Shown here: positions 14,939-47,745 of the stretch, one piece after another
Numbering within the stretch: position 1 is the first letter of the stretch
How the letters are laid out: each line of letters begins with the position of its first letter
DNA from: a virus
Lineage: Duplodnaviria > Caudoviricetes
DNA length: 52,417 bases
Virus record (IMG/VR): IMGVR_UViG_3300032232_001029
Span: 1 to 52,417 of that record
Strand: one strand, 5' to 3'
Position numbers and translations under genes: made by a program
The notes under the pieces: generated by a model
Told to the model about the DNA's origin: nothing
Databases searched by the model: none
The model's input: only the letters and a program-made list of their open reading frames with translations

Positions 14939-14984
14939 GTAAGTAACTACACATCAATGACTTACAGCGCCGGGTCCCGCCCGG
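14939..14984 (+). repeat. Cassette-boundary element copy 1 (box + GC core)
   Basis: GTAAGT-N15-ACTTAC agcg CCGGGT-CCC-GCCCGG. Confidence 0.92.
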
Positions 14985-16068: not shown

Positions 16069-16114
16069 ATAAGTCCCTCATTATCAACGACTTACGCAGC
16101 CGGGCCCCGCCCGG
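16069..16114 (+). repeat. Cassette-boundary element copy 2
   Basis: ATAAGT-N15-ACTTAC gcag CCGGGC-CCC-GCCCGG. Confidence 0.92.
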
Positions 16115-16221
16115 TATGGTACTGTAAGACAAGCGGTTTGTCAAGCTTTTTCTCAATAAAAAGTTTATCACACACGAATTTTTTTGTTGTTTTTTTAGGT
16201 GTGCCATGCTATCTTTTAACC

Positions 16222-16756: not shown

Positions 16757-16802
16757 ATAAGTCGCTGATACTGAGTGACTTACAGCGCCGGGCCCCGCCG
16801 GG
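16757..16802 (+). repeat. Cassette-boundary element copy 3
   Basis: ATAAGT-N15-ACTTAC agcg CCGGGC-CCC-GCCGGG. Confidence 0.92.
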
Positions 16803-16909
16803 CAAGTATACTGTAAGACAAGCGAATAGTCAAGCACAAAATAAAAAAGAATTTTTAATAGTACGAAAGTTTTTGTTGCGTTCTGGTGGCTCCATGCTAT
16901 TCTGTACTC

Positions 16910-17128
16910 ATGACAAACACGAACACCCTCGCCCCTTCCGAAACCCTTACTGATGCCGAGCTTGCGGCTCGTGAGGATGCCCTTCACGCTCGCGAAATGG
17001 CCGAGTATGAGGCTCGTATGAACGAGGCTGATGAATGTTCTTGTCCTACAGACGCAGACCCTGTAGACCTTTACGGGGGCGACGATTTCTCCAACGAGTA
17101 TATAGAAGGAGATCAGGGAGAGTGGTAA
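16910..17128 (+). CDS. Acidic small protein
   Basis: MTNTNTLAP..., D/E-rich; TTGCGT-16-TATTCT-6-ATG. Confidence 0.7.
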   Translation: MTNTNTLAPSETLTDAELAAREDALHAREMAEYEARMNEADECSCPTDADPVDLYGGDDFSNEYIEGDQGEW

Positions 17129-17170
17129 ACCCCTGATAGTCAACCACTTACAGAGCCCGGCCCCGCCCGG
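17125..17170 (+). repeat. Cassette-boundary element copy 4
   Basis: GTAAAC-N15-ACTTAC agag CCCGGC-CCC-GCCCGG; the upstream stop codon lies in the left arm. Confidence 0.9.
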
Positions 17171-17254
17171 TGTCAAGCATTTTTTACAAAAAAAACTTTA
17201 CCGAAAGCAAAAATAGTTCTTGTAAAAATCTCAGATCCTAGGTAGTATGAATAC

Positions 17255-17782: not shown

Positions 17783-17828
17783 ATAAGTTGCTGATACTGA
17801 ACTACTTACGCCGCCGGGCCCCGCCCGG
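17783..17828 (+). repeat. Cassette-boundary element copy 5
   Basis: ATAAGT-N15-ACTTAC gccg CCGGGC-CCC-GCCCGG. Confidence 0.92.
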
Positions 17829-18922: not shown

Positions 18923-18968
18923 GTAACACCCTCTAAATCAACGACTTACGCCGCCGGGGCCCGCCCGG
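18923..18968 (+). repeat. Cassette-boundary element copy 6
   Basis: GTAACA-N15-ACTTAC gccg CCGGGG-CCC-GCCCGG-like core. Confidence 0.88.
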
Positions 18969-19252: not shown

Positions 19253-19283
19253 CACAATAATAAAAATCCTTTTTAATTACTTT

Positions 19284-19505
19284 ATGACAACCGACACACT
19301 ACAGACTGATGCCTGCCCCCAATGGCGAGAGCTTGGCCCTGACGAGACGATCCAAGAGGGTGATGAGTTTAAATCTGACGATAGAGGATGGAGGCCAGTA
19401 CATTATTGGGCCATCGGGAAAAATTCCTCATATTTTATCTTACACTTCCGCACCCACCGCCCGTTGCCGCCTGTAGTAGATCAGACGCAATCCATAACTA
19501 AATAA
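19284..19505 (+). CDS. TDTPRTDA-family protein 1
   Basis: MTTDTLQTDACPQWRELGPDETIQEGDEF; TTGACA-17-TTTAAT-6-ATG. Confidence 0.7.
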   Translation: MTTDTLQTDACPQWRELGPDETIQEGDEFKSDDRGWRPVHYWAIGKNSSYFILHFRTHRPLPPVVDQTQSITK

Positions 19506-19546
19506 GAAATCAGTTATTGATGAATATACCTAAAACCTTAAATAAG

Positions 19547-20047
19547 ATGACAACCGACACACCACGCACGGATGCCGTGCCATCCAATCAGTCTATGCTT
19601 ACTGCACAATCCGATCCTGTTGAGCTATATCAACAGCTATGTGTTACAACTTTTGGTTTTGAAAGGGCTTTAGACGCTTGTGCTGAGTATCGAATTCAAC
19701 TCACCGCATCACAGGCCGAGGTCGAGAGGCTCCGTGCGTTTATCAAAAGCATACTGCCCCCGCCTCCTTACGGAGAACTGGAACCTGAATGGAAATACGC
19801 TGAAAAGCTACTAGCCGAAACCGCCACCTTGCCAGAGGAAGCAGAGGCCGAGCTTTCCATGTGGAGAGATGGGGGAATAATGCACGAAGACCATAGCAAA
19901 GAAATAGATGAAACTAATCAAAAGCTCGACACAGCTATTGAAATTGCAAAAGACGCACTTTGGTATGCTCGCATCTACGAGAATGAAATTCATTTCAATA
20001 AAATGGATGGCCTGTACCAGAAACTAGTCGCATTAAAAAACAAATGA
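19547..20047 (+). CDS. TDTPRTDA-family protein 2
   Basis: MTTDTPRTDAV...AEVERLR coiled coil. Confidence 0.7.
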   Translation: MTTDTPRTDAVPSNQSMLTAQSDPVELYQQLCVTTFGFERALDACAEYRIQLTASQAEVERLRAFIKSILPPPPYGELEPEWKYAEKLLAETATLPEEAEAELSMWRDGGIMHEDHSKEIDETNQKLDTAIEIAKDALWYARIYENEIHFNKMDGLYQKLVALKNK

Positions 20048-20334
20048 AAACCGACACACCACGAACTGATGCCGTGCCGAAACGATACATGACAGTCGTC
20101 TATGAAATCGTAGATGAAACCGAGTGGAGGAAAACAAACCCACTGAGGTATGAACACAACGGACTCAGCGCAGTTACAGTTTCAGCATACGATGCAATCG
20201 AATTGCTGGATGAAGCAGAGGCCGAGGTCGAGAGGCTAAGGGAGTCATTAGAACGATACGATGACATCATCAACAAGCAGGACGATGAGATAATCAGACT
20301 CCGTAGAGTCTATAGCAACCTACTAAACAAATGA
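20044..20334 (+). CDS. TDTPRTDA-family protein 3
   Basis: MKTDTPRTDAV...EAEVERLR. Confidence 0.75.
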   Translation: MKTDTPRTDAVPKRYMTVVYEIVDETEWRKTNPLRYEHNGLSAVTVSAYDAIELLDEAEAEVERLRESLERYDDIINKQDDEIIRLRRVYSNLLNK

Positions 20335-20993
20335 AAACCGACACACCACGAACTGATGCCTGCGGTTTCTGCGGAGAAAAAGACTGCAAACCATACTACC
20401 GACCTCATGGGCAAGAATGCCGATCTGCTTTGTGCGAGATGACTGAACGAGCAAAGAAAGCAGAGGCCGAGGTCGCAAGGCTCCGTGATGAGGCCCAAAG
20501 TTGGAAGAAACATTCATTCACACTCCGAGATGAGGTCGCATGGTTCAGCGAACGGCTTAACCGAGCGATTGAAATCGGGAAAACACTCTCTTTCTCACAC
20601 TGTTACGATTGCCAAAAAGATAACTGCTCATTGTGCAATCTTGTAGAAGAACTAGCCAGACTCGCCACCGCGCCAGAGGAACCTGCCCCCCAATGGCGAG
20701 AGCTTGGCCCTGACGAGACGATCCAAGAGGGGGATGAGGTATTATCATCTAAGGGATGGAGACCAGCAATACGAATTGGAAGGACGAAGTTACAGGTTAT
20801 GTCGTACCGCACCCGCCGCCCGTTGGAACTAATGAAGACGAGCCGACAACTTGAGCAAGAACTTAACGCATCCGAGGCCGAGGTCGAGAGGCTGAAGGAA
20901 CTTATGTCCAGACTATGTGAATCAGTAGCGGAAAATTGGGACGAAGGAATCGCAAAATACTTCAAAGATGAAATGAACAAAAGTAAAAAATAA
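20331..20993 (+). CDS. TDTPRTDA-family protein 4
   Basis: MKTDTPRTDAC..., Cys clusters, QWRELGPDETIQEGDE module, EAEVERLK. Confidence 0.75.
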   Translation: MKTDTPRTDACGFCGEKDCKPYYRPHGQECRSALCEMTERAKKAEAEVARLRDEAQSWKKHSFTLRDEVAWFSERLNRAIEIGKTLSFSHCYDCQKDNCSLCNLVEELARLATAPEEPAPQWRELGPDETIQEGDEVLSSKGWRPAIRIGRTKLQVMSYRTRRPLELMKTSRQLEQELNASEAEVERLKELMSRLCESVAENWDEGIAKYFKDEMNKSKK

Positions 20994-21944: not shown

Positions 21945-21990
21945 GTAAAGCGCTGATAATCAAGGGGTTACAGCGCCGGGCCCCGCCCGG
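21945..21990 (+). repeat. Cassette-boundary element copy 7
   Basis: GTAAAG-N15-GGTTAC agcg CCGGGC-CCC-GCCCGG. Confidence 0.9.
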
Positions 21991-22728: not shown

Positions 22729-22805
22729 GGAACTATAGCTTAATTGGTTAAAGCATCGCCCTGTCACGGCGAGGAGTACGGGTTCGAGTCCCGTTAGTTC
22801 CGCCA
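22729..22805 (+). tRNA. tRNA-Asp (GTC)
   Basis: GGAACTA/TAGTTCC acceptor, TCGCC-CTGTCAC-GGCGA anticodon arm, TTCGAG T-loop, CCA. Confidence 0.95.
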
Positions 22806-22820: not shown

Positions 22821-23258
22821 ATGCAATTAAAAACAAACGCAACGGATGGAGGTCGTTCAAAGTCTGGTATAGAAGAAAAGGGGGATTGCACAATTCGTGC
22901 CCTTGCCATAAGTGCGGGCATTCCCTATCAATATGCCCACAAGATAGGAAGAGAAGCCGGAAGGAAAGACAAAAAAGGTTTTCATCCAGAAATACTTCTC
23001 AAGTATGCCAAAAAAGAGTATGGCATAACATATAAGAAAAAGCGTTACAAAAGCGTTACCATTCAAAGATTCATTAAAGAAAATCCAACAGGTCACTACT
23101 ATGTTGCAACTAATAATCATGCTTTTGCTATCATAAACGGAACAATTCACGACACTGGATTAAATCGTCCGCTTCAGAGGCTAGAAGAGGCTTACTTAAT
23201 GTCTAGTCGTCGCCTAACATCCATCGCTGAGATGTATAAAAATAGCCAATCGTTCTAA
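22821..23258 (+). CDS. Phage hypothetical protein
   Basis: GDCTIRALAI...HAFAIINGTIHDT (possible Cys-His-Asp triad). Confidence 0.7.
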   Translation: MQLKTNATDGGRSKSGIEEKGDCTIRALAISAGIPYQYAHKIGREAGRKDKKGFHPEILLKYAKKEYGITYKKKRYKSVTIQRFIKENPTGHYYVATNNHAFAIINGTIHDTGLNRPLQRLEEAYLMSSRRLTSIAEMYKNSQSF

Positions 23259-23300
23259 AGCGTTGGTTGTCAACTACTTACAGCGCCCGGCCCCGCCCGG
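23255..23300 (+). repeat. Cassette-boundary element copy 8
   Basis: CTAAAG-N15-ACTTAC agcg CCCGGC-CCC-GCCCGG. Confidence 0.9.
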
Positions 23301-24002: not shown

Positions 24003-24054
24003 ATTATAAAAATAAACCTTGCAACAATCACAGAAAAATATCAAAATCAAAATC

Positions 24055-24744
24055 ATGAAACTCCTATCACCCAACAACACGAAAATCAAAAAAGGCGAAA
24101 AACTCGGATGGCTCACGCTTGGCCTCTCTCTCCTTCCATATAACCTTTCGGGAAAAAACTTCTGTTCCCACGCTTCCGAAGGTTGTGCGGCGGCTTGCCT
24201 CAACACTTCAGGTATGGGGGTTTTCTCTAATGTTCAAGAGGCACGATTGAAAAAGTCTCGTTACTTCATCGAACAGAAGGACGCTTTCCTTGCTCAGTTA
24301 AAGAAGGAAATATCTCTTGCGATTAAGAACGCAAAGAAGAAAAACATGAAACTTGCGGTGCGGTTAAATGTTCTCTCTGATCTTTCATGGGAAAATCTGA
24401 TTGATATGAAGTCTTTCCCCGAAGTGACTTTTTACGACTACACGCCAAACCCTAAAAGGATGACGGCCTTCCTTAGTGGCGAGCTTCCCGAAAATTATCA
24501 CCTTACCTTTTCCCGCAAGGAAAACAATCAGAGCATTGTCGAACTCATGGCAAGCATGGGGGGAAACATTGCGGCGGTTTTTGCTGGTAGCCTTCCATCG
24601 TCCTACCTTGGAAAGCCAGTAGTCAACGGCGATGACACCGATTTACGCTTTCTTGATCCGAAAGGCGTGATCGTCGGCCTAGTTGCTAAGGGTAAGGGAA
24701 AGAAGGATTCATCGGGCTTTGTCTTACAGCCTGTAAACTCTTAA
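24055..24744 (+). CDS. Gp88-like phage protein (Cys-cluster, radical-SAM-like)
   Basis: CSHASEGCAAACL, VRLNVLSD, FYDYT, NYHLTFS, GDDTDLRFLD motifs. Confidence 0.8.
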   Translation: MKLLSPNNTKIKKGEKLGWLTLGLSLLPYNLSGKNFCSHASEGCAAACLNTSGMGVFSNVQEARLKKSRYFIEQKDAFLAQLKKEISLAIKNAKKKNMKLAVRLNVLSDLSWENLIDMKSFPEVTFYDYTPNPKRMTAFLSGELPENYHLTFSRKENNQSIVELMASMGGNIAAVFAGSLPSSYLGKPVVNGDDTDLRFLDPKGVIVGLVAKGKGKKDSSGFVLQPVNS

Positions 24745-24982: not shown

Positions 24983-25028
24983 GGAAGTGACTGATAATCA
25001 ACGACTTACGGCGCCCGGCCCCGCCCGG
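24983..25028 (+). repeat. Cassette-boundary element copy 9
   Basis: GGAAGT-N15-ACTTAC ggcg CCCGGC-CCC-GCCCGG. Confidence 0.9.
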
Positions 25029-25221
25029 CGAGTTGTCATACAACGTCGGAGGCGCATGAATACTGGCGCTAGCGGCACACTATACCCCACAGATGAATAT
25101 GCCGTAGAGTCGCATAAACACTGGGTCTACAGCTGTCAAGTAATATGTGCGAAAAATAAACGCACAAAAAATCAAAATACCTCTTGCCGTACCGCACAAA
25201 AAATAGGATGATGAGGGGGTA

Positions 25222-26022
25222 ATGAAAACACTAAACCTCACACTACACTGCGGCGGCCACGAAGTTTCTACGGAGCAAGTCGCGAACTCCATCACCCCTA
25301 ACGCAACGGATTCTTGGCATCCGATTCCTCACTCTCGTATCATCGAGGGACTGCGCGAGACGGTTGCCACTGCTGGGCTTGAAATCGTACAGGAGCGCCA
25401 TGCTCTTGCGCGTGACGGTCAGCGATACTTCGGCTTGTTCCAAGTGTCCGGCATTCCCAACTTCTCTCTGTCCGAGACGGTTGGCACTGTTATCGGCTTG
25501 CGTAACTCGCACGACAAGTCCTTCCCTGCTGGCATTAACGCTGGCTCCGCGCCATTCGTTTGCGATAACCTCTCATTTCACAATGAGATCAAGATCGCCC
25601 GCCGTCACACGAAGTTCATCCTTCGTGACCTTCCAATGCTCCTCGCTGGCGCATTCGGCAAGCTCACCTCTGCTTGGGGTAATCACGCCAAGCGTGTCGA
25701 GGCTTATCAGGCTTGCACGATCAACGACAAGGACGCTCACGACATGATTGTCAAGGCGTACCGTTGCGGCGCGGTGTCCAAGACTGCTCTGGCTGATGTT
25801 GTCTCACAGTGGCACGAGCCCGAGCATGATGTCTGGGGCTCCGAGCGTAACCTCTGGGGGATGTACAACGCCTTTACCAATGTCCTGCGCGGCAATGCAA
25901 TGGCGCTCCCTCGTCGCTCTGACGCACTCCACGCCCTTCTGGATCCTCTCGCGGGTATCGCGGCCCAACAGGTCGTAGAGGCACAGGTCGAAGCCGTCGA
26001 GCCCGTACTGGTGACGGCCTAA
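25222..26022 (+). CDS. DUF932-family protein
   Basis: GLRNSHDKS, FVCDNL, RRHT and LWGMYNAFT motifs. Confidence 0.85.
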   Translation: MKTLNLTLHCGGHEVSTEQVANSITPNATDSWHPIPHSRIIEGLRETVATAGLEIVQERHALARDGQRYFGLFQVSGIPNFSLSETVGTVIGLRNSHDKSFPAGINAGSAPFVCDNLSFHNEIKIARRHTKFILRDLPMLLAGAFGKLTSAWGNHAKRVEAYQACTINDKDAHDMIVKAYRCGAVSKTALADVVSQWHEPEHDVWGSERNLWGMYNAFTNVLRGNAMALPRRSDALHALLDPLAGIAAQQVVEAQVEAVEPVLVTA

Positions 26023-26064
26023 CATAGGCAACTAACATAGGGGGGTGGCAAATGGGCCGCCTCC

Positions 26065-26141
26065 CTAAGTGGTTGAAGATCAGCGACTTACGTCGCCCGG
26101 CGGGGCCCGGCGCTGTAAGTGCTTGATATGCAATAACTTAA
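26065..26141. repeat. Cassette-boundary element copy 10: symmetric box-core-box (orientation switch)
   Basis: CTAAGT-N15-ACTTAC gtcg CCCGGC-GGG-GCCCGG cgct GTAAGT-N15-ACTTAA. Confidence 0.92.
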
Positions 26142-26268
26142 CTGGGCTTGACAACGCTCCCAAGTAGTGTTATACTAATATAAGTGGGAGAAATATAATT
26201 CATGCAGTTAGTATGTATGAAATAATGTTAGTTCCCACGATGTCAGGAGACAGGGCAGTCCAAAAAAC

Positions 26269-27052: not shown

Positions 27053-27271
27053 CGGTAGTTGACACCATAAACAAAAAAAACTAAACTATAAAAATGAAAG
27101 ACCCTGTTACATTCCTCCTTAATCTCTTTGGTTACGAGTATAATAAGCCTAGCCTACTGAAGATGTATATGTGTGATGTCACTCATGGCACATGGATGGA
27201 GGATCTCCAGCGCAAGAATCAGGTTAGTGATTACCAGTATCGTATCTATACTGAAGTTTAAGGTCTAGCGG

Positions 27272-27317
27272 CCCGGCGGGGCCCGGCGTCGTAAGTTGTT
27301 GATACGTAACAGCTTAC
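27272..27317 (-). repeat. Cassette-boundary element copy 11 (inverted)
   Basis: CCCGGC-GGG-GCCCGG cgtc GTAAGT-N15-GCTTAC. Confidence 0.9.
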
Positions 27318-27396: not shown

Positions 27397-29613
27397 ATGA
27401 TTACTACACAAAACACCGCATCAGTCTCTACCTCTGGAATCAAGTCTGCCGTTTCTTTCGGCATTAAAGATTCTGGACTCGCTCACATTTTTAATGTTCT
27501 TCGCAATCAGCTTTATACTGATAAGATCGGTGCTGTCGTGCGTGAGTATTCCGCAAATGCCTGTGATGCCAATGTCGAGGCTGGAACACCCAATGTTCCT
27601 ATCGTTATCTCTTTGCCTTCGCAGTTGAACAAGGTACTGAAGATTCGTGACTTCGGTCGTGGTCTTTCACAGCAAGACATTCAAGACATTTATTGCTTCT
27701 ACGGAGAAAGCACAAAGCGTCAGAGTAATGCCTTTATTGGTCAACTCGGACTCGGCTCCAAAAGTGCGTTTGCCTATGGTGATAACTTTGTCATCAACTC
27801 CTTTACAGATGGGATAGTCCGTTCTTACAACGCATTCATTGATCCTTCTGGCATCGGTCAGATTGCTCTACTTTCCGAAACACCAACGGAGGAACGCAAC
27901 GGAGTGGAAATCGTTATCCCTGTAAAGATGGAGGATGCTCCACACTTCACCAAGGCCGTGAAAAATTACCTTCGATTCTTCAAGGTCAAGCCAACCATTA
28001 TCGGTATGACAAAGGAGGAATCGGAAAGCACTTTTGAGGGTGCTATCTCGCAGGGTGAGGGGTGGAAGTTCTATCGGAATATCTCTTCTCCTCATGCGGT
28101 CATGGGTAATATCGCCTATCCGATTGCCCTCTCTTCGATGAAACTGGATAATAGCAATGCAGATGACAAGATGATCGCAAATCTTCTCAATGCGGCAATG
28201 GTGATTGACTTCCAGATCGGTGAGTTAGATGTTGCGGCAAGTCGTGAGGGTTTACAATACACCGCACACACGCTTCACAATATCCGTGTCAAAATGAAGA
28301 TGATTGCTGATAACATCATTAGAGAGATACAGACACAGATTGATCGTGATGCCAAGAGCGAGTATCATGCCTTACTCCTCCTCTCTAAGATGTATGAGAA
28401 TGTGCAGGGCTTCGGTTATATTCGTCAGATCATCAAAGGCATTAAGTTCAAGGGTTCCCCTTTGTCCATGAATTGCTACATCGGAACCAGCAAGCGGTCT
28501 ATTGATAAACAGATCAAGTTTCGTGCCATGAGGTATCGGAAGAACTGGAACGGCAACATTCAAGCAAGCGAGACTGCCGAGTTCCAAGTTCGGGGAAAAA
28601 ATACCTTGGTCTTTAACGATCTCGGCAATTACAACTCTGGTGCAAGAAACGCTAGGTATCTCGCTTCGCAGGGTGACAATGATGTATTCCTCTTTACTCC
28701 GCAGATCGTCAAGATTATCGGTGCAGAGGAAAAGCTAGGTACTATCAAGAAGGACGATAATTCCTATTCCAAGCAGATCGCAGAGATTAAGAAGCTGAAC
28801 GGATTTGCTGATTCAGATTTTATCCTCGCAAGCTCTATCGTTATCCCTGTTGCTCATGTCGGTATCGCCACTGGCAAGGTTGCAAGAACTGGCGTACTCC
28901 TGTTCAAGCCTAGTAACGCTAACTCTTGGAGGGCAAAGAATGCTTGGGATGAGGTGAATACGGATCTCAAGAATGGTTCGGGGGTCTATGTCCAAGTGAA
29001 CAATAATCGCCCTGTGATTAACGATAATCGCAAAGAGCCTTCGACTCTTGCCTCTATCATCGCCCCATTCAAGGCAACAATCGACGGCAATAAAATCATT
29101 GGTGTCACAAAAGCACAGATGTCAAAGCTCGGAAGCGGATGGGTTAGCCTTAGCGACAAAATCGTGGAGGAGTTCGATAAATATGTTACCGCCAACAATC
29201 TTAACCTTGATAAGATCACCGCTTATCGTTACGCCTTACCGATGCTTCGTGACTTGGGTGGTCTTGCTCTGATCTCGGAGCCAAAGACGCAAGCAATCAT
29301 TCTAAAGAGCCTAAAGGATAAGGAGGTTCACGCAATTCTTTCGGAGGTCTATGCGGTCATCAACTCGGACAAGCAGGGTAATAATGGCAAACTGGAAGCG
29401 GCAAGCCTTATGATGACGCAACTTGAATACCTCGGCCTTCCCTCGACAAGTGTTAATAAGAAACACTCTCTTGAGATGGCAGAGAACATCAAGAAAGACT
29501 TCAAGAAGGTTTGTGAGAAGTTCCCCATGATCGGGCTTGTCGATACTAGCTACCTTCGTTGGAGGACAGACGAGAAGGTGATGCGGAAGATCGCAGATTA
29601 TCTGAACGCTTAA
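27397..29613 (+). CDS. rIIA: RIIA-like protein (N-terminal GHKL ATPase)
   Basis: VREYSANACDA, IRDFGRG, YGESTK, GQLGLGSKS, ELDVAASREGL; followed by rIIB. Confidence 0.88.
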   Translation: MITTQNTASVSTSGIKSAVSFGIKDSGLAHIFNVLRNQLYTDKIGAVVREYSANACDANVEAGTPNVPIVISLPSQLNKVLKIRDFGRGLSQQDIQDIYCFYGESTKRQSNAFIGQLGLGSKSAFAYGDNFVINSFTDGIVRSYNAFIDPSGIGQIALLSETPTEERNGVEIVIPVKMEDAPHFTKAVKNYLRFFKVKPTIIGMTKEESESTFEGAISQGEGWKFYRNISSPHAVMGNIAYPIALSSMKLDNSNADDKMIANLLNAAMVIDFQIGELDVAASREGLQYTAHTLHNIRVKMKMIADNIIREIQTQIDRDAKSEYHALLLLSKMYENVQGFGYIRQIIKGIKFKGSPLSMNCYIGTSKRSIDKQIKFRAMRYRKNWNGNIQASETAEFQVRGKNTLVFNDLGNYNSGARNARYLASQGDNDVFLFTPQIVKIIGAEEKLGTIKKDDNSYSKQIAEIKKLNGFADSDFILASSIVIPVAHVGIATGKVARTGVLLFKPSNANSWRAKNAWDEVNTDLKNGSGVYVQVNNNRPVINDNRKEPSTLASIIAPFKATIDGNKIIGVTKAQMSKLGSGWVSLSDKIVEEFDKYVTANNLNLDKITAYRYALPMLRDLGGLALISEPKTQAIILKSLKDKEVHAILSEVYAVINSDKQGNNGKLEAASLMMTQLEYLGLPSTSVNKKHSLEMAENIKKDFKKVCEKFPMIGLVDTSYLRWRTDEKVMRKIADYLNA

Positions 29614-29630
29614 CATTGTAGTGAGGAACG

Positions 29631-29661
29631 AGGGTGAGGCTATGTGGTGTGGCCTCACCTT
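29631..29661 (+). terminator. Stem-loop after rIIA
   Basis: GGTGAGGC/GCCTCACC stem; weak U tract. Confidence 0.45.
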
Positions 29662-29711
29662 CAACTCTTTTAATTCAATTAAAATCACACCGGCATTGGA
29701 GTAACTAACAT

Positions 29712-29757
29712 CCCGGCGGGGCCCGGCGCTGTAACCTATTGATAATGAATGACTTAT
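29712..29757 (-). repeat. Cassette-boundary element copy 12 (inverted)
   Basis: CCCGGC-GGG-GCCCGG cgct GTAACC-N15-ACTTAT. Confidence 0.9.
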
Positions 29758-29825
29758 AACTATTCGTATCTTTATTGTAAAAAGTTCTTGTGAGGTCGTA
29801 CAAGAAAATGTATTATGAGGGAGTA

Positions 29826-30698
29826 ATGAATATCCCATATATCCTAACTGATAACTCACTAACGGCAATCCTCGCAGGAGTGCCACACACCATCCAGAAC
29901 TCCCATGAGAACTGGACGACAATCATCGAGGCTGTCAAGTCCGATGCCACAGAGCAAGAACTCCTTGATCTCATTGATACGGCTACTGCTGTCTCTAACT
30001 GGTCAGAGGGCGAGGTCGAGGTCGAGAATGGTCATGTCTACTTCAACGGAGAGGTCGTGCATGGTACTATTGTGGACAAGATTTTATCCTTTATCAAGGA
30101 GGGAATCTCTCCCACTCCTCTCGTCCGATTCCTTGAGAATCTGATGCAGAATCCTTCTCGTCGTAGCGTCTCGGAACTCTACTCGTTCCTTGAGCATGGC
30201 AATATGCCCATCACGCCAGATGGTCACTTCCTCGGCTACAAGAGTGTCAATTCTGATTGGATGGATCACTACTCTGGAAAGTTCCGCAACAAGGTCGGAG
30301 ATGTGCTTCAGATGCCTCGCAACTCTGTTTGCGACGATGCAAACCTTGGGTGCAGTTACGGCTTCCATGTCGGCTCTCTTGAGTACGCAACCAATTTTGG
30401 GTCTAGTGATCGCAAGGTTGTTATCGTGAAGGTGAATCCTGCGGATGTGGTTTCGGTTCCGCACGATTGCGACTTCCAGAAGATGAGGACTTCTCGCTAC
30501 GAGGTTGTCGGTACATTCGACGCTCCGCTTCCTAACGGCTACTACGATGGTTATGATAGCGACGAGGACGAGGACGAGGGCGAGTACGAGGAGGAGTATA
30601 GCTCCTACGATGGTACGACCTACGGCGTGAAGCCTAGTGGTGATCGCTACCACAATGTCAGAGACGGCAAGGGTCGGTTTGTCGCACGAAAAAAATAG
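29826..30698 (+). CDS. rIIB: RIIB-like protein
   Basis: FLENLMQNPS, ITPDGHFLGYKSV, CSYGFHVG..EYA, KVNPADVVSVP motifs. Confidence 0.9.
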   Translation: MNIPYILTDNSLTAILAGVPHTIQNSHENWTTIIEAVKSDATEQELLDLIDTATAVSNWSEGEVEVENGHVYFNGEVVHGTIVDKILSFIKEGISPTPLVRFLENLMQNPSRRSVSELYSFLEHGNMPITPDGHFLGYKSVNSDWMDHYSGKFRNKVGDVLQMPRNSVCDDANLGCSYGFHVGSLEYATNFGSSDRKVVIVKVNPADVVSVPHDCDFQKMRTSRYEVVGTFDAPLPNGYYDGYDSDEDEDEGEYEEEYSSYDGTTYGVKPSGDRYHNVRDGKGRFVARKK

Positions 30699-30771: not shown

Positions 30772-30817
30772 CCCGGCGGGGCCCGGCGTCGTAAGTTGTT
30801 GATGGTAAGCTACTTAC
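30772..30817 (-). repeat. Cassette-boundary element copy 13 (inverted)
   Basis: CCCGGC-GGG-GCCCGG cgtc GTAAGT-N15-ACTTAC. Confidence 0.92.
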
Positions 30818-30872
30818 TAAATTGTAAAAATACTTCTTGTCACGCTGTACAACTAGTCTTATAGTAGAGGTC

Positions 30873-32052: not shown

Positions 32053-32138
32053 GCCCCTGAAGCTCATGGAGAGCAAGTCCGCTTATAACGGATTACTGTT
32101 GATAACAGCTAGGCGGGGTTCAATTCCCCACAGGGGTA
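32053..32138 (+). tRNA. tRNA-Ile (TAT) with long variable arm
   Basis: GCCCCTG/CAGGGGT acceptor; TCCG-CTTATAA-CGGA anticodon arm; CTGTT-GAT-AACAG extra arm; TTCAATT T-loop; no encoded CCA. Confidence 0.75.
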
Positions 32139-32773
32139 ATCTCTAATCTTCCATGATCAAATTCCCAATGACAGTTAGGGCAAAGATAAATAAGATTATC
32201 AATAGAATTAACGACAGATAATTTAGTATCCTTTGAAAAACTGGCTACAGCCTTTATATGACAGCATTGAACATGCTTATCATATTTACAGTTTGAACAA
32301 ATCTTGGGCATGTGCTTCATTTGTGCTCTGGCATGGTCTCTTATCGGGGAATACCTATTAGCTCCTTTATTGTTTTCTATTTCGGCTATAGTTTTTTCTT
32401 TACTAGATATTAATGAAAATTTTGGTCGGCACTGTTCACAATACTTAGCGCTACTTTTTAGAGTTCTTTGTCCACATTGTTTGCACATATTTTCATGCGC
32501 TCTTTTGGGATATATAACATTATTATACTTTGCTGCGCATACGCGAGAACAAAAATGATTTAAAGTTCTTTTTATCTGTGATGGTCTTTTTCCAAAATCT
32601 ATACCACAAGTTTTACAATTAACATTAACTCTATCTGATTGAGCTTTCCACTGGCAGGGTGCCGAACAATAAAATCTTGCAGATGGGTTTTGACGAATAG
32701 AATTATTATATATTTTCTTTTGTTTTAAAAATTTAACCCCGCATCCACAGCAGTCTAACTCTATAGTATTCAT
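32120..32773 (-). CDS. HNH endonuclease with N-terminal Cys-rich repeats
   Basis: CCHIK...NLIYLCPNCHWEFD; several CxxC/FCS motifs. Confidence 0.85.
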   Translation of the reverse strand: MNTIELDCCGCGVKFLKQKKIYNNSIRQNPSARFYCSAPCQWKAQSDRVNVNCKTCGIDFGKRPSQIKRTLNHFCSRVCAAKYNNVIYPKRAHENMCKQCGQRTLKSSAKYCEQCRPKFSLISSKEKTIAEIENNKGANRYSPIRDHARAQMKHMPKICSNCKYDKHVQCCHIKAVASFSKDTKLSVVNSIDNLIYLCPNCHWEFDHGRLEITPVGN

Positions 32774-32875
32774 ACTATATATTACACTAGGAGTCGAACT
32801 ATTTCTAATAAATATCCGTTTCGATTCCTAAGGGTAGTGCTTGACAAACTATTCATATAGAGTTATTATTCTCAT

Positions 32876-33067
32876 ATGCACTACTGGCCAAACCCATCCA
32901 TCACTAAAACACAATCCTCAATGGGCAAGCTCAGGGGGAATAGGCCGAAGGGTTTGACTGACGACGAGTGGCAGTCAATGGTAGCCGCACAGCTTTTCAA
33001 CAAGCAGTTGCTATTGAACTGCGTTCCGAAGGTTTCAAAGAAAGAGTTTGTAAAGAAGGACAGGTAG
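32876..33067 (+). CDS. Hypothetical protein
   Basis: TTGACA-17-TATTAT-6-ATG. Confidence 0.6.
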   Translation: MHYWPNPSITKTQSSMGKLRGNRPKGLTDDEWQSMVAAQLFNKQLLLNCVPKVSKKEFVKKDR

Positions 33068-33084
33068 TTTTATAGTTTAACTAT

Positions 33085-33160
33085 GGCTATGTAGCCCAAC
33101 GGCAGAGGCAACAGGCTTAAAATCTGTCGAGTGTGGGTTCGAATCCCACCATAGCTACCA
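33085..33160 (+). tRNA. tRNA-Leu (TAA), short variable loop
   Basis: GGCTATG/CATAGCT acceptor; ACAGG-CTTAAAA-TCTGT; TTCGAAT; CCA. Confidence 0.9.
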
Positions 33161-33173
33161 ACCCTAAAATCCA

Positions 33174-33509
33174 ATGAAATTAACTAGCTACAAATCTTAT
33201 CACACTGATATTGGAGGAGAGTACGAAAGTGTCGAGAGCGTATGGAATCTAGCCGTCGAAGACACTGATACTTACGATGCGAAAATCAAAGAGCGTTTTA
33301 AAACTATTCAAATCATCCAAAGAACATATCTGGAGAATGTAAAGAGAGACAACTTTACTTGGTATCAAGGCTATCGTACTAATTGTTTTACTTCGGATAC
33401 TAAAGACAAGCAAAAGCAGTTTGTTATTAAAGAAGCTAACAAATTCATGCATACTTTTAAAAATCACGCCCTTGTAGCTCAATGGTCAGAGCAGTCGGCT
33501 CATAACTGA
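33174..33509 (+). CDS. Hypothetical protein (3' end runs into a tRNA)
   Basis: ORF track. Confidence 0.55.
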   Translation: MKLTSYKSYHTDIGGEYESVESVWNLAVEDTDTYDAKIKERFKTIQIIQRTYLENVKRDNFTWYQGYRTNCFTSDTKDKQKQFVIKEANKFMHTFKNHALVAQWSEQSAHN

Positions 33510-33540
33510 TTGGTTGGGGGTTCGAATCCCTCCGGGGGCA
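33468..33540 (+). tRNA. tRNA-CAT (Ile2 or elongator Met)
   Basis: GCCCTTG/CGGGGGC acceptor; GTCGG-CTCATAA-CTGAT; TTCGAAT. Confidence 0.88.
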
Positions 33541-33553
33541 CTACTTTAAATAT

Positions 33554-33626
33554 GCGTCGGTAGCTCAGTGGATAGAGCAGGAGTTTTCTAAACTCTTGGT
33601 CGCAGGTTCGATCCCTGCCCGATGCG
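33554..33626 (+). tRNA. tRNA-Arg (TCT)
   Basis: GCGTCGG/CCGATGC acceptor; GGAGT-TTTCTAA-ACTCT; TTCGATC. Confidence 0.9.
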
Positions 33627-33646
33627 CTCCACTTTATTCTTGACAT

Positions 33647-33692
33647 CCCGGCGGGGTCCGGCGCCATAAGTTACTGGTAATCAACCACTTAC
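33647..33692 (-). repeat. Cassette-boundary element copy 14 (inverted)
   Basis: CCCGGC-GGG-GTCCGG cgcc ATAAGT-N15-ACTTAC. Confidence 0.9.
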
Positions 33693-33772: not shown

Positions 33773-34537
33773 ATGCAACTCGACTTCATCGGAAACTCAA
33801 TAACCAAACTTAACAACAATGCAACCGAACAACCAAGATTCTGGGATCATGCTTATAATCTCGTCCCTACTTGCCGCCCTCGCCTTGATACTACGAAAGT
33901 AGACAGGTTTTTTAATTCAATTTTAGATGAGGAGATCTCCGAGTATTCTAAATACTGGGATAGTGTTACCCCCCGAAATGCTTCGGAAGTGTTTCAGCGT
34001 TGGTTGTTCGCCTTTATGAGCGTCCATACATCGTGGCGTTCAAACATTAACGGATACCTTATGATCCGTAACTGGTGGGAGTGGATGAACAAGCCAGAGG
34101 AGCTTGAGCGTAGGATCGTAGAGAGTGGTGCTGGCCTCCATAAAAACCGCACTAAATTCATTACCGCCTTCGCTGAACACTATTGGGCTAACATGGATTT
34201 CTACAAGAAAGCCGAGGATGAGTCTTGGACTGATTTTCGTGATCGTCTCGTCAAGCAAGTGCTTGGTCTTGGTATGGCAAAGGTCAGCTTCAGCCTTGAG
34301 ATGATCTACCCTTCGATTGCCGAGGTTACTTGCCTAGACACTCACCTGTTCCAAGTGTTCGGTCTGGATCAGTCAAAGGACGCAAAGCAGTATCATGCTA
34401 TGGAGAAACATTGGATCGAAATGTGCAAAATGTGGAATGTTAGTTCGTATGTCGCTCGTTGCATCTGGTGGGATCGCAACCAAGGCTATACTGATAGTCG
34501 ATACTGGAGCTTCGTCCTAGAAACCAGTAATCAGTAA
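33773..34537 (+). CDS. HhH-type DNA glycosylase-like protein (thermostable OGG-like)
   Basis: VLGLGMAKVSF helix-hairpin-helix and CLDTH catalytic motif. Confidence 0.7.
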   Translation: MQLDFIGNSITKLNNNATEQPRFWDHAYNLVPTCRPRLDTTKVDRFFNSILDEEISEYSKYWDSVTPRNASEVFQRWLFAFMSVHTSWRSNINGYLMIRNWWEWMNKPEELERRIVESGAGLHKNRTKFITAFAEHYWANMDFYKKAEDESWTDFRDRLVKQVLGLGMAKVSFSLEMIYPSIAEVTCLDTHLFQVFGLDQSKDAKQYHAMEKHWIEMCKMWNVSSYVARCIWWDRNQGYTDSRYWSFVLETSNQ

Positions 34538-34548: not shown

Positions 34549-34628
34549 GTAACCTGTTTGTGGTGAGCGGGTTACGACGCCCGGCGGGGGGGCCCGGCCG
34601 CATAAGTCTTTGATAGACAGTTACTTAT
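34549..34628. repeat. Cassette-boundary element copy 15: box-core-box at the strand convergence
   Basis: GTAACC-N15-GGTTAC gacg CCCGGC-GGGGGG-GCCCGG ccgc ATAAGT-N15-ACTTAT. Confidence 0.9.
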
Positions 34629-35098
34629 CTATCTCTAGGGTCATCACTCAAACCCTTGTATAAAATATATAATGCAAAAATAAATACGACAAATAGGATA
34701 ATATCCTCTAATATATCTAGACATAATTGTAACATGTATATGTGGAGTATAAGCTATACGCTATTTGCCGTAAAAATATTCGCCTATTTAGATCGGGCTA
34801 TTTCACTATTTCGCGTTCACGAATTACCGCTTGTCACGAGACAAGTGAAAAACGTAATCACCAAGATGAATCTTTATCTCACTCTCTCCGAGTATTAGAT
34901 CGGAGAACTCAATATCATCCGTAGTAATCTTCTTTCCGTTGGCTAGGGCTATTACCCAATTACTCTCCTCTGGGTACGGGTCGATAGACAGGATGCTAAT
35001 GTCCAGATCCCCCTTTGTGATAGCGGTAAGAGTGTTATTGCGTAACACCTCTAGTACCTCTTCTACGTGCTTACTGTGTGCCATTTTATTTTATTCTA

Positions 35099-35604: not shown

Positions 35605-36612
35605 TTACTCATTCTCCTCCAGTGTAACAGTTTCTGTTGCTACTTGCAATCCTTTTTTCCCCACACACTCCTTGTCTATGTCACGCAGGTATTCTAATCC
35701 TTTTGCCGTAATGCGTCTACCACCTTGGGCGACCTCCATCAGTCCATGCTTGAGAAGGTATAGCTCAAACTCGCTACGCAGGGCATTACCAGACAATCCA
35801 GTAACCGCACTCAAATTCGTGAGCGAACAACTACCCCTCTCTTTCAGTACCCTGAGTACCTGTAGTTCTGTATTCTCTAACCCTAAAGGTAGGATGCCGA
35901 GTACGCACTTGAGTTCCTCCCATTCCTTGTGTCCGATGTCATGAACATTGTGCCTACGAGCAAATTGCGTGACGTTATCTTTTGCCATCAAGGTTGCGTT
36001 TCTAGCGTTGCCCCTACAAGTAGAACTAATTTGTTTAATTACTTCTGGTGAATAAGTAATCTCATCACTATTGGCCTCTACAATCTTTGCCAAATCCCCA
36101 GAGTTATACTCTTCCATATGAATCATCTTACACCTGTCTTTTAGGGGTGTGATAACTCTTTGGGGGTCGGTAGTAGCGAATATGAAACTAACCTTAGTAA
36201 AGTCAAACTCTATATTATAGTCATCAAAACGTAGTGTGTTTCTGTTATGCTTGTTGGGATTCAGAACCGTGAGCATGCAAGTCTGCACACTCTCTGGCAT
36301 CTCATGTGCCTCGTCAAAGAAAACAGTAATATGCTGATCCCTGATGTAGGTTAATGCGATATCCTCCACGAACTGGCGAACGTTCTTGAGCGTCGAGCAA
36401 TTGATCGTAAGCATCGGCTTGACACGCCCGAGTGTCTTGCTACGTAAATTCTTGGCCACCTGAGTTGCTAGCATGGTCTTGCCCTGACCACGCTGACCAA
36501 CCACAAAAAGATGTGGCAGTATCTCGCTCTTCTCAAATGCATCAATATAGAAGGAAAGGACACGCTTGGTTTTGTCCTGACCGATCATCTCGTCAAAGTA
36601 GGTTGTTTCCAT
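35605..36612 (-). CDS. ruvB: Holliday junction branch-migration ATPase RuvB-like
   Basis: GQRGQGKT, FFDEAH, FIFATT, PLKDR, RGNARNA and C-terminal wHTH (ELYLLKHGL...GGRRIT). Confidence 0.85.
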   Translation of the reverse strand: METTYFDEMIGQDKTKRVLSFYIDAFEKSEILPHLFVVGQRGQGKTMLATQVAKNLRSKTLGRVKPMLTINCSTLKNVRQFVEDIALTYIRDQHITVFFDEAHEMPESVQTCMLTVLNPNKHNRNTLRFDDYNIEFDFTKVSFIFATTDPQRVITPLKDRCKMIHMEEYNSGDLAKIVEANSDEITYSPEVIKQISSTCRGNARNATLMAKDNVTQFARRHNVHDIGHKEWEELKCVLGILPLGLENTELQVLRVLKERGSCSLTNLSAVTGLSGNALRSEFELYLLKHGLMEVAQGGRRITAKGLEYLRDIDKECVGKKGLQVATETVTLEENE

Positions 36613-37000: not shown

Positions 37001-37085
37001 TGGTGGACGAGGAGAGACTCGAACTCTCAAGCCTTTCGGCATATCGGCCTAAACGATACGTGTCTGCCAATTTCACCACTCGTCC
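37001..37085 (-). tRNA. tRNA-Leu (TAG)
   Basis: GGACGAG/CTCGTCC acceptor, TATCG-TTTAGGC-CGATA, long variable arm, CCA. Confidence 0.93.
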
Positions 37086-37277
37086 ATGGATATATATTAC
37101 AACTGTTTTACACCAGAGTCAAATTAAAATTCAATTTTATTAATTAAAAGGAATTTTAAATGTTTTTGTGTACTACTTTTACCGTCATTAAATTTCAATA
37201 TTATTAAGCTATTGTTATTTTATTATTTAAAATGATATAAGACACCATTGATTAACTTACTATTTAACTTGTATCCC

Positions 37278-37344
37278 TTATTTGGCAAAAAGTCGTTCAC
37301 TTTTTAGGATTCATTATTTGGCCGAAAGTCGTTCACTTTTTAGG
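37278..37344. repeat. 36-bp direct repeat (2 copies)
   Basis: TTATTTGGC...AAAGTCGTTCACTTTTTAGG at 37278 and 37314. Confidence 0.85.
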
Positions 37345-37346
37345 TT

Positions 37347-37434
37347 TGGAGGAAGCGGAGGGATTCGAACCCTCGGTACATTACTGTACGGCAGTTTAGT
37401 AAACTGCAGCCTTAAACCACTCGGCCACACTTCC
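37347..37434 (-). tRNA. tRNA-Ser (ACT)
   Basis: GGAAGTG/CGCTTCC acceptor, GCAGT-TTACTAA-ACTGC, long variable arm, CCA. Confidence 0.88.
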
Positions 37435-38120: not shown

Positions 38121-39026
38121 TTAATACAATACATCTGTTATTTGGCTGTTTCTCTCTCGCAAATACGGCATAATACTTAACTCTTTTGCTTTGGCTTCTA
38201 CTTCTATATCAAAAGGGACTTCGGGTATCTTGGAGACGTAATCGCTGTGCGCCGGGTCCAGTGCGTGCATCCGGCCCTCGGACCAGTGCTGTACTGGGTC
38301 TATATTTGGCCAACTGTCTCTCACAAATTTGATTATTTCATCTAATGTATATTCCGCATCCGGATTAATTAATAAATGATGATAGTCCAGAGTAATAGGT
38401 ACTTTAAAGTGTTTCTTTATATTACCGGGCGTCCAATACCCATTCTGTTCATTCTCAAATACAATTCTATCCCTAAGAGTTCTGCTCATCATACTGAGAC
38501 TTTGATTTACATTATTTACTACTGTTTCTCCTTTGGTTCCATTACTGATATGTATATTAATAGGACAATTTACATTAGCAGGTAAACCTAAATAATCTAA
38601 TAGTTCTGCATGATACTCTAGATTTAGTAGGCTTTTCCTTCTTACCTCATCTGTATGTGAACTGATCACTACAAACTGGCCGGGATGTATGGTCAGTCTG
38701 CCGCCAAACTGTAAATATCTCTGTAGAGCTTGCCGGGCCGGGCCGCTTGCCTCTGCCATCCACTCTGCCCTCAATCCCTCTCTCCATAACTGCCCCCACT
38801 GCTCATGATCAGCAAAAGGAATTAGATCACTACTGATTCTATACAAGAAAACCTTATTTGTAATATTCCATTCTATTATTTTACTGAGTAATTTGAAATT
38901 ATGACTGACTATCGACCTCCACTTCTCTGGGGCCTGATCGGGATTCTTATTAGCCCATCCTAGCTTCATTGTCTTAAAGCGCTCGTCTAGAGATGTGTTG
39001 ATGCAGCAATAACCAGTTCTGTACAT
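38121..39026 (-). CDS. uvsE: UV-damage endonuclease UvsE/UvdE
   Basis: GYCCIN, YRISSDLIP, HPGQF, INIH, FENE, LDYHH, HSDY, EVEAKAKE motifs. Confidence 0.92.
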   Translation of the reverse strand: MYRTGYCCINTSLDERFKTMKLGWANKNPDQAPEKWRSIVSHNFKLLSKIIEWNITNKVFLYRISSDLIPFADHEQWGQLWREGLRAEWMAEASGPARQALQRYLQFGGRLTIHPGQFVVISSHTDEVRRKSLLNLEYHAELLDYLGLPANVNCPINIHISNGTKGETVVNNVNQSLSMMSRTLRDRIVFENEQNGYWTPGNIKKHFKVPITLDYHHLLINPDAEYTLDEIIKFVRDSWPNIDPVQHWSEGRMHALDPAHSDYVSKIPEVPFDIEVEAKAKELSIMPYLRERNSQITDVLY

Positions 39027-40785: not shown

Positions 40786-41463
40786 TTATAACCCTATTGT
40801 CTTAATAAATAGACTATATTCATCTAGTATGACATTGATTGCATTCTCTGCTTCGTGCTTACTACCGAAATGTTTTTCGAGTGGTTTTAAAATGTTTGGA
40901 GCTATTCGGTACATGGAGTGCCTTCCTGTTTTTTCTGGAAACGCCCAATGGCAGGTCAGACAATCTTGCAGACATCCTGCGCATGAACTTCTTTTTATTG
41001 CATTGCAATGATTGCAAAGCGGTTGCCAGTTCTCGTCTGCATTTGTCCCGCCTCTTGATAGAGGAATTTTATGATCGGCCTGTAATCCGACCACTCCAGA
41101 TCCGGTAAGCTTACGGCAAACGTTACATTTATATTTATTTTTACGAAATAGGGCTACTTTCTTTGTTTTTTCTAGTGATCCCCTTGTCGGTATTACTGGT
41201 AATATATTAACTGACCTTAATCTGTATCTGTATTGTTGCTTATCGCGGCCGGGTTCTATATCACAACCTATTTCACTCTTTAATGTTCTAATTCTACGGT
41301 CAAAATTCTTTTGTCCTGTTATATTTAAGAGGTCAGTACTACTAATCCAAGGTTTAGGGAAGACTTCCATGTCATTTACCCATAATGTGGACAATATTTT
41401 CTTATATACGCCCTTTATTTTAGGGAAGTTCTGTTCGTATGTGACATAAGAGATGGGTTGCAT
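40786..41463 (-). CDS. wHTH-HNH endonuclease (restriction-endonuclease-like architecture)
   Basis: RRIRTLKSE wHTH-like segment; CNVC...LQADHKIPLSRGG...WQPLCNHCN..K; extra Cys cluster. Confidence 0.75.
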   Translation of the reverse strand: MQPISYVTYEQNFPKIKGVYKKILSTLWVNDMEVFPKPWISSTDLLNITGQKNFDRRIRTLKSEIGCDIEPGRDKQQYRYRLRSVNILPVIPTRGSLEKTKKVALFRKNKYKCNVCRKLTGSGVVGLQADHKIPLSRGGTNADENWQPLCNHCNAIKRSSCAGCLQDCLTCHWAFPEKTGRHSMYRIAPNILKPLEKHFGSKHEAENAINVILDEYSLFIKTIGL

Positions 41464-46747: not shown

Positions 46748-46752
46748 GAAAG

Positions 46753-46826: not shown

Positions 46827-46831
46827 ATAAT

Positions 46832-47727: not shown

Positions 47728-47745
47728 GTAGATAATTACACAAAA

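Follow-up and report, generated by a model that had tools for sequence, protein, structure and literature searches.

The repeat described here comes from an uncultured phage with a genome of about 140 to 155 kb and a GC content of about 36 to 38%. The window, meaning the whole stretch that was analysed, is the complete IMG/VR record IMGVR_UViG_3300032232_001029, which has 52,417 bases and is estimated to be 35% of that genome. Between 12.6 and 35 kb it holds a block of small genes on the plus strand, and all window copies of the repeat lie between genes of this block. Nine copies point one way, after which five point the other way. The switch is at copy 10 (26065-26141), which sits between a DUF932 gene and a strong promoter, upstream of the rIIA and rIIB genes. 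Comparison with related phages shows that early-gene modules have been lost, relocated and inverted at these repeat units, copy 10 being one of the joints.

The unit consists of a 25-bp box with dyad symmetry (TAAGT-N15-ACTTA), a 4-nt linker and a 15-nt GC core. The core is nearly palindromic, with a 6-nt arm, a CCC loop and again a 6-nt arm. Allowing up to 2 mismatches, the core pattern has 14 matches in the window where 0.03 would be expected, and none of 100 shuffles reaches this number. A degenerate 15th copy, with its core at 34583, was not in the list of the original prediction. If the core is read so that the loop is CCC, the box (by a strict pattern) is on its 5' side in 13 of the 14 copies; the remaining one, with its core at 21976, has a GGTTAC variant. 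This means that the unit is truly polar.

The original prediction described a polar repeat with segregated orientations, nine on the plus strand and then five on the minus strand, and this is what is found. Such a perfect order has a probability of 2/2002 if orientations are independent, which copies of a repeat are not. Also correct was that the genes stay on the plus strand on both sides of the switch: the plus-strand open reading frames (ORFs) are the ones conserved in five relatives.

Relative to transcription, a unit can be read in two ways. After the stop of a gene, either the box comes first and then the core, called 'co', or the core comes first and then the box, called 'anti'. The unit is present in nine other viral contigs, six of which were analysed: G001 and G003 (both complete), G002, G004, G005 and the L021/L022 contig. 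Counted over six genomes there are 77 copies, of which 46 are co, 28 are anti and 3 sit at convergent gene junctions. Except for the G001 copy at the 3' end of the Ogg gene, every co copy is found before the homolog of copy 10. The anti copies are at or after that homolog, and the seventh genome has the same layout. What is constant across all seven genomes is polarity relative to transcription. The polarity switch is the place where the last unit of the co type meets the first unit of the anti type, head to head.

Copy 10 has a box on both sides of a single core. It had been called a pseudo-palindrome, and indeed 52 of its 77 positions are self-complementary, where 2000 shuffles give 19.1 +/- 5.3 with a maximum of 36. 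An independent assembly contig covers 21997-27300 without differences, so the fused site is not a mis-join of the record. In all six relatives, the halves of copy 10 are two separate elements that face each other after the DUF932 gene. The first one runs from box to core and closes DUF932. The second one runs from core to box, and is followed by the same near-consensus promoter that the window has at 26148-26176. The pair is spaced by 411-418 bp in G002, G004 and G005, and by 800-908 bp in G001, G003 and L022. In G005, the only spacer examined, the interval holds one ORF of 69 amino acids.

The two boxes of copy 10 have different counterparts. The left one matches the G005 element behind DUF932, and the right one the element next to the promoter in G001, G003 and G002. 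Window positions 24997-26110 align with G005 22880-21764, and 26095-26255 align with G005 21361-21203, which means that the two alignments share the core and nothing else. Given the separate halves in the relatives and alignments that meet only on the core, copy 10 is a core-to-core junction from which a small cassette is missing. In other words, it is a chimera of two facing elements, with the interval absent and the junction inside the core. The fused state is found at this locus in one of the seven genomes. In this unrooted comparison a deletion is the parsimonious direction; the alternative is an unoccupied insertion site.

Sites of the form box-core-box are not confined to copy 10. The window has a second one, copy 15 (34549-34628), and among the 77 copies there are 5 by a strict score, with three more seen. 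Such double-box chimeras occur in at least five junction contexts. The left box of copy 15 is of a second type, GTAAC-N-GGTTAC, with a fixed inner sequence. It is well conserved and marks the Ogg 3' end in every genome (G001 136443, G002 7435, G004 8133 and G005 18846). Compared to the common box, its outer stem is changed on both sides, from G-C to C-G.

Downstream of the promoter, protein and nucleotide synteny give three layouts among the seven genomes. Here A stands for the small genes past the promoter, with the ORF at 27094-27261 among them. X2 stands for the genes from 30837 up to the tRNAs, and Z for the minus-strand group from 34824-35084 to the clamp loader. The window and G004 have layout I, which is A - rIIA - rIIB - X2/tRNAs - Ogg - Z. 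Layout II, in G002, is A - Ogg - part of X2 - rIIA - rIIB - Z. Layout III is found in G001, G003, G005 and L022, and reads A - Ogg - inverted (X2, rIIB, rIIA) - Z.

Nucleotide homology stops at window positions 27271, 33653-33658 and 34585-34607, each of which is inside a core. The part made up of core, box, AT-rich stretch and promoter is kept with rIIA or with Ogg, and what lies 5' of the core depends on the neighbour. Of the 132 ends of blastn matches of at least 200 bp in 12.6-34.9 kb, 36 are within elements. The expectation is 7.6, and the highest number in 2000 random sets is 19; intergenic bias is not controlled for in these numbers. Where the rII block is inverted, the elements are inverted together with it. 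The original prediction held that orientation follows genome position and not transcription. This fails, as four relatives have the rII block, elements included, in the inverse orientation to the window; orientation appears to travel with the module and to have no positional meaning.

The features of the window are listed in Table 1. No alternative joints at the elements were seen in the assembled contigs of three public runs, all from one study. The elements are also where contigs of these assemblies end, since long identical words are common to adjacent copies.

Table 1. Copies of the repeat and other features of the window. M1 is the module rIIA...tRNAs, M2 is the Ogg module.
Feature	Position	Strand	Core start	Remarks
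Large terminase	2815-4716	-		
ERCC4-type nuclease	4707-5651			
Copy 1	14939..14984	+	14970	co, box then core
Copy 2	16069..16114	+	16100	co; antisense TTGACA-17-TACCAT directly past core (16144..16116)
Copy 3	16757..16802	+	16788	co; antisense TTGACT-17-TATACT directly past core (16833..16805)
Copy 4	17125..17170	+	17156	co; followed by AT-rich/-35 motif of anti type (17205-17223), the sole co copy with it
Copy 5	17783..17828	+	17814	co, long type, conserved 3' extension of ~110 nt
Copy 6	18923..18968	+	18954	co
Copy 7	21945..21990	+	21976	co, long type; box variant ends GGTTAC
Copy 8	23255..23300	+	23286	co, long type
GP88-family protein	24019-24744	+		
Copy 9	24983..25028	+	25014	co, long type; 5' of DUF932 gene
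DUF932 gene	25222-26022	+		final gene before polarity switch; 57% GC; 85-96% amino acid identity, 5 relatives
Copy 10	26065..26141		26096	minus-strand core 26096-26110 (GGG loop on +); left box 26066-26091, linker, core, linker, right box 26115-26140
Promoter, sigma70-type	26148..26176	+		TTGACA-17-TATACT, 11/12, TG-extended; kept after copy-10 homolog in 5/5 relatives examined
Copy 11	27272..27317	-	27272	anti; left edge of M1
rIIA	27397-29613	+		conserved ORF in relatives; block with rIIB inverted in four relatives
Copy 12	29712..29757	-	29712	anti; between rIIA and rIIB; hairpin+T terminator just upstream
rIIB	29790-30698	+		forms block 27397-30698 with rIIA
Copy 13	30772..30817	-	30772	anti; then AT-rich stretch and TTGTCA-17-TATAGT (30837-30865)
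HNH endonuclease	32120-32773	-		among tRNA genes, inside plus-strand block
Copy 14	33647..33692	-	33647	anti; M1/M2 boundary
Ogg-like DNA glycosylase gene (M2)	33773-34537	+		placement differs among relatives
Copy 15	34549..34628		34583	degenerate core 34583-34597; second-type box 34549-34575; normal box 34602-34628; right edge of M2
Clamp loader	35605-36612	-		
Endonuclease	38121-39026			
HNH endonuclease	40786-41463	-		

Anti copies are often followed by a promoter. On the sense strand downstream, 18 of 28 have a sigma70 match scoring at least 9.5, compared to 0 of 28 in a coding control. The AT-rich/-35 motif occurs 5 times where 0.13 would be expected. After co copies a different signal is found. 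Six of the nine co copies of the window have an extended -10 sequence, TGNTANNNT, 107-188 nt downstream and 6 nt before an ATG. The pattern TGNTANNNT-N6-ATG has 10 matches where 2.83 are expected, 6 of which follow co copies. At 15149, 16207, 16895, 17986, 19088 and 22164 (plus strand), this extended -10 precedes small genes that have no Shine-Dalgarno sequence. Its placement implies a putative family of leaderless early genes.

There are also promoter-like sequences in antisense. Near-consensus sigma70 promoters whose -10 abuts the core are found at copies 2 and 3, and in relatives at G002 10880, G004 17825 and 25739, and G005 21764. These point back into the element and the gene upstream of it. 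On the GGG strand, 19 of the 77 copies have a -10-like hexamer beside the core, where the background is 0.083. In only 8 of these, all of them co, TAnnnT is combined with a -35 that matches at least 5 of 6 positions. TAACAT, without a -35, abuts the core in about ten mostly anti copies.

Conservation is 0.94 in the core, 0.75 in the box and 0.42 in the flanks. The loop is CCC in 68 of 77 copies. At a box score of at least 8/11, 69 of the 77 copies of the six genomes agree in the side of the CCC-loop core on which the box lies. With 8-nt flanks included, the core folds at -7 to -19 kcal/mol into a modest hairpin, its stem having up to 6 pairs and its loop 3 nt. In this stem, the third pair is often a mismatch (26 of 44 co copies, 18 of 27 anti copies). 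In either alignment, 12 of 15 nt of the core are identical. For the four core 15-mers, no occurrence was found in the literature searched.

Both pentamers of the core are invariably CCSGG. Within 14-35 kb, 29 of the 30 CCSGG sites are in cores, and the lone exception is in a tRNA. Over the whole 52 kb, CCWGG occurs once and CCSGG 49 times; there is no avoidance of GATC (178 sites). The pattern suggests that CCNGG sites are selected against in all of the sequence but the cores.

In the consensus of the box, about 20 of 25 positions are dyad-symmetric. An RNA hairpin was considered as the main constraint on the box and rejected: neither class has an excess of G.U over A.C on the transcribed strand (A.C 55 and G.T 25 in co, 27 and 21 in anti), and specific mismatches are conserved. 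For example, the non-pairing C/A at positions -23/-13 is kept in 32 of 43 co copies. These data favour a dyad-symmetric sequence motif over a hairpin. For the extension of the long co copies, a structured RNA was likewise rejected, as the covariation term over 5 sequences is unfavourable (+1.76) and compensatory changes are found in 5 of 28 pairs.

The units are probably a family of cassette boundaries that combine a stem-loop with a promoter, sit in the variable early region and serve as recombination joints, much like the promoter early stem-loop elements (PeSLs) of T4-type phages. Upstream of DUF932, units would close cassettes of small genes, in the order stop, box, core. From the promoter at 26148 on they would open cassettes instead, in the order stop, core, box, AT-rich stretch, sigma70-type promoter, gene. 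The GC hairpin may insulate or attenuate transcription between cassettes that have their own promoters. Because the palindromic core is common to both in either alignment, any gene-end half could be joined to any promoter half, through short homology or through recombination provoked by the hairpin. The outcome of such core-to-core joining would be deletions, transpositions, inversions and box-core-box chimeras. Joining through the core works in either orientation, so that orientation would travel with the module.

A number of observations weigh against this explanation. The repeated unit itself contains no promoter, and none of the 46 co copies has a sigma70 match of at least 9.5 within 130 nt downstream. 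One co copy has the promoter motif of the anti type, so orientation and promoter type are correlated, not coupled. The core is none of the 15 terminator-like sites found when 14.5-34.5 kb was scanned; cores have no U-tract and the sequence after them is not T-rich. The canonical terminator directly upstream of copy 12 (29630-29662) suggests that the core is not simply a terminator. The mismatched third pair, fixed loop and core conservation point to sequence-specific recognition, and not to a generic stem-loop. No RecA/UvsX-type or RecT recombinase was detected in any of the four records searched. Match ends favour intergenic DNA anyway, and the seven genomes are related with mostly orthologous positions, which leaves few independent events. 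At copy 10, the choice of deletion over insertion rests on parsimony with one fused genome in seven and no rooted tree. Finally, the lineage could not be shown to be T4-type; rIIA, rIIB, a clamp loader and a large terminase are present.

Several other explanations can be offered for these data. One of them, mainly that of the original prediction, has polar sites around a replication origin, terminus or packaging or entry point, with copy 10 at its centre. Apart from the segregation in the window being perfect, GC skew with elements masked does change sign weakly near 26 kb, from -0.037 upstream to between +0.02 and +0.07 downstream. In the sign of their coding-strand skew, the rII genes agree with the rest of the phage, so that this change reflects the odd composition of the small-ORF block; it tracks gene content. 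In the complete genome G001, cumulative GC skew is monotonic with its minimum at the end of the record, and has no extremum at the array (124-143 kb). Nearly all genes of G001 are on one strand; the array occupies its only plus-strand, GC-richer island together with the adjacent rII block, and all 12 copies are within 19 kb of 154 kb. Across a convergent gene boundary, 11 of 12 copies in G001 and 12 of 13 in G003 have the same DNA orientation, which is because the rII block and its elements are inverted there. Record ends are of little help: those of 'complete' records are arbitrary. The first base of G003 is within the clamp-loader gene, and the ends of G001 overlap by 127 nt. In the likely source run, the five to six contigs of 17.8-30.8 kb have a per-contig word depth of 276-303, against 171 for the left 17.5-kb contig and 194 for the right 21.6-kb contig, and such depths are not rankable. 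They change in steps, at elements that bound the contigs, and not along a gradient; a second strain that shares the 17.8-30.8 kb segment could be the cause. The symmetric site exists in one of seven genomes, with separate facing elements in the other six, and the rII block with its elements has the opposite orientation in four of the seven. An origin or packaging point is thus largely refuted, and the least probable of the explanations weighed here.

The invariant core may be a targeted crossover site. This would make the two CCSGG pentamers around a fixed loop the place of a dedicated cassette exchange, in a lytic phage and without an integrase. Gene-end halves (box-core) and promoter halves (core-box-promoter) would join in any combination and in either orientation, and box-core-box would be the joined, full or 'empty' site. 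A site- or structure-specific enzyme, for example a phage nuclease that cuts hairpins or cruciforms, or a DNA-binding protein, might start the exchange at the extruded hairpin, with an accessory protein on the box. It differs from the PeSL-like explanation in one thing, that recombination is targeted and not a by-product. The junction of copy 10 falls within 15-16 nt of core, in which the facing elements, aligned directly, have only 12 of 15 nt in common. The near-invariance of core and loop next to diverging boxes and flanks, the fixed pentamers to which CCSGG is nearly confined in the block, and the repeated occurrence of double-box chimeras all fit. The window encodes nucleases (two HNH, one ERCC4-type and the endonuclease at 38121-39026), none of them linked to the sites. 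Parts of Arbiol 2010 (PMC2839356) raise this same option for PeSL stem-loops. Conversely, the same junction would result if microhomology led to a deletion at the base of a large inverted repeat, and gene conversion among copies could explain an invariant core. Tyrosine recombinases (PF00589, with a control positive in 14 of 14 genomes), serine recombinases and Y1 transposases (PF01797) have no match in any of four records, which include two complete genomes. The original prediction suggested a recombination system with full and half sites. Of this, the junctions at cores and the recombinant nature of copy 10 stand, and full and half fairly describes the form of double-box and single-box sites; a tyrosine or serine recombinase or a Y1 transposase was not found in the four records. 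A targeted exchange is unlikely, yet not so unlikely as what follows.

The boxes could also be operators through which a dimeric phage or host protein controls early cassettes. At the ends of genes it would be a polar roadblock, or upstream of promoters an activator, with the GC core as a clamp or insulator, and the switch would separate two regulatory regimes. The dyad symmetry of the box and its conserved non-pairing bases without G.U excess suit this, and numerous polar sites near the ends of genes have a precedent in the stoperators of cluster A mycobacteriophages (abstract of PMC9283540). Distances from box to -35 cluster near 22, 35 and 46 bp. About five independent promoter contexts underlie these groups, too few for a helical phasing between box and promoter, which was rejected. 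No Pfam DNA-binding domain is found in ten ORFs of the array, rearrangement junctions in the core go unexplained, and orientation relative to transcription flips, which it does not do for stoperators. As an explanation, operators are improbable. More improbable still is that these are selfish miniature mobile repeats, similar to miniature inverted-repeat transposable elements (MITEs) or to the REP/BIME sequences (repetitive extragenic palindromes and bacterial interspersed mosaic elements), without a function in the phage. The units have that appearance: they are palindromic and GC-rich where the genome is AT-rich, lie between genes, point both ways and form mosaics, and they may resemble REP/BIME. 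The lack of a Y1 (RAYT/IS200) transposase in the four records, the confinement of the copies of G001 to 19 of its 154 kb, the invariant core and the orthologous positions across genomes argue otherwise, as does the strict tie between orientation and cassette type. No target-site duplications were noticed, with no systematic search made.

The rest of the window gives a partial picture of the phage. Besides rIIA, rIIB and the clamp loader it encodes PhoH. The best match of rIIA among named phages has less than 40% identity over part of the protein. Neither 24-32 kb by megablast nor the region of copy 10 by blastn has a nucleotide match among GenBank phages. Searches for the Gp23 and Endonuclease VII families found nothing, and the controls were equally silent. 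There are nine or ten tRNAs, located at 22729-22805, 32053-33627, 37001-37434 and 46671-47905. Beside them is a full-length transfer-messenger RNA (tmRNA) at 47988-48438 (minus strand, 79.4 bits, model positions 1-374). Of the Rfam models, only tRNAs and tmRNA score above the gathering threshold in the window. The HNH gene at 32120-32773, on the opposite strand, is placed like a homing endonuclease insertion, and has a relative, 40% identical, only in G003.

The DUF932 protein is far more conserved (Table 1) than the rIIA of the same relatives, which is only 51-62% identical. Together with its GC content, this points to a recent spread or to strong constraint. The phage homologs it has in GenBank, in Salinibacter and Microcoleus phages, are all distant, with less than 30% identity. 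The window also has repeats of other kinds. A tandem family of paralogous small genes at 19277-20993 has near-identical 5' ends and internal repeats (families D12, D14, D18 and D20), and in the contigs of other strains, joints at 19736/20660 and 20362/20455 skip between its paralogs. The record starts with three copies of a 108-nt tandem repeat (1-370). Six copies of a 66-nt tandem repeat (11800-12374) are part of a gene for a leucine-rich-repeat protein on the minus strand (11430-12536).

With a polar repeat, a near-invariant core and facing copies that share only this core, the family is unusually informative. Crossovers can therefore be placed within about 15 nt, and whether recombination at the G/C stem-loops of phages is directed becomes a testable question. 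If exchange is in fact targeted, this would answer the question that Arbiol 2010 left, which is whether a specific recombination protein recognises PeSL-type stem-loops. Modular shuffling of the PeSL type is extended beyond cultured T4-type phages into an uncultured lineage, and the elements help to delimit early-gene cassettes in these metagenomic genomes. There is also a caution for readings of sequence alone, since a striking polarity switch with a symmetric centre can be a recombination scar.

Several known systems are similar in part. Integrons share the palindromic sites at cassette boundaries, with junctions inside the site. Their attC sites are imperfect palindromes between which cassettes are reshuffled, a tyrosine recombinase is encoded with the array, and the cassettes are promoterless and have one orientation. 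In contrast, none of the four records has an integrase-type recombinase, and the cassettes of this lytic phage have their own promoters and both polarities. The REP/BIME sequences of enterobacteria are GC-rich imperfect palindromes at the 3' ends of genes, single or in mosaics of alternating orientation, and have been linked to mRNA stabilisation, attenuation and rearrangements. The phage unit differs in that it comes without a RAYT/Y1 transposase, occupies one 19-kb region, has an additional dyad box, and has an orientation strictly linked to cassette type. Stoperators are asymmetric repressor sites of 13-14 bp in temperate phages, which point one way relative to transcription. Here, orientation flips between two blocks and the unit has a GC hairpin. 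Unlike in stoperator phages, neither a repressor (Pfam, ten array ORFs) nor an integrase (four records) was found. What is shared is the many copies of a polar site near gene ends, with an orientation related to transcription.

Another parallel is from T4 itself, where deletions occur at GGGC, sometimes paired with GCCC (Mosig et al. 1998, as cited in portions of Arbiol 2010, PMC2839356). There too small non-essential ORFs are lost from a variable region, and the core described here contains exactly GGGC...GCCC, with copy 10 as a probable deletion junction of this kind. As far as those portions go, the T4 cases are laboratory mutants and a 4-nt motif, where the present case is a natural 15-nt core plus box, in another lineage.

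The closest likeness is with the PeSLs. In the sections of the two PeSL papers drawn on here (Arbiol 2010, PMC2839356; Comeau 2014, PMC4122927), these combine a sigma70 promoter and its AT-rich upstream region with a G/C stem-loop, and occur in the hyperplastic regions of T4-type phages. They sit at the breakpoints of indels and replacements between related phages, and are proposed to be cassette insulators and mediators of modular shuffling. The units described here are also composite intergenic repeats, concentrated between the small ORFans of a variable early region where gene content and order differ among relatives. Breakpoints are likewise found at the motifs, here at 26095-26110, 27271, 33653-33658 and 34585-34607. 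The core hairpin matches the stem-loop with G and C tracts, with its third pair mismatched in 44 of 71 copies. A promoter is found with the anti copies (18 of 28) and not with the co copies (0 of 46), whose starts with an extended -10 lie further downstream. For PeSLs, the stem-loop is also taken as a terminator or attenuator next to an active promoter, and neighbouring motifs as recombining into mini-circles; here, the cores have no U-tract and the assembled contigs show no alternative joints at the elements. The PeSLs are from T4-type phages, which the present lineage is not shown to be. Inversion, orientation and palindromes are not discussed in this sense in PMC2839356 or in PMC4122927. 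The conserved unit is here a bipartite polar box and core, and not a promoter, and its core is a near-invariant 15-nt palindrome with the mapped junctions inside. What is new compared to PeSLs is this polar combination of box and core, its use in both polarities relative to transcription, the box-core-box chimeras and module inversions that go with it, and junctions that lie inside 15 nt of core.

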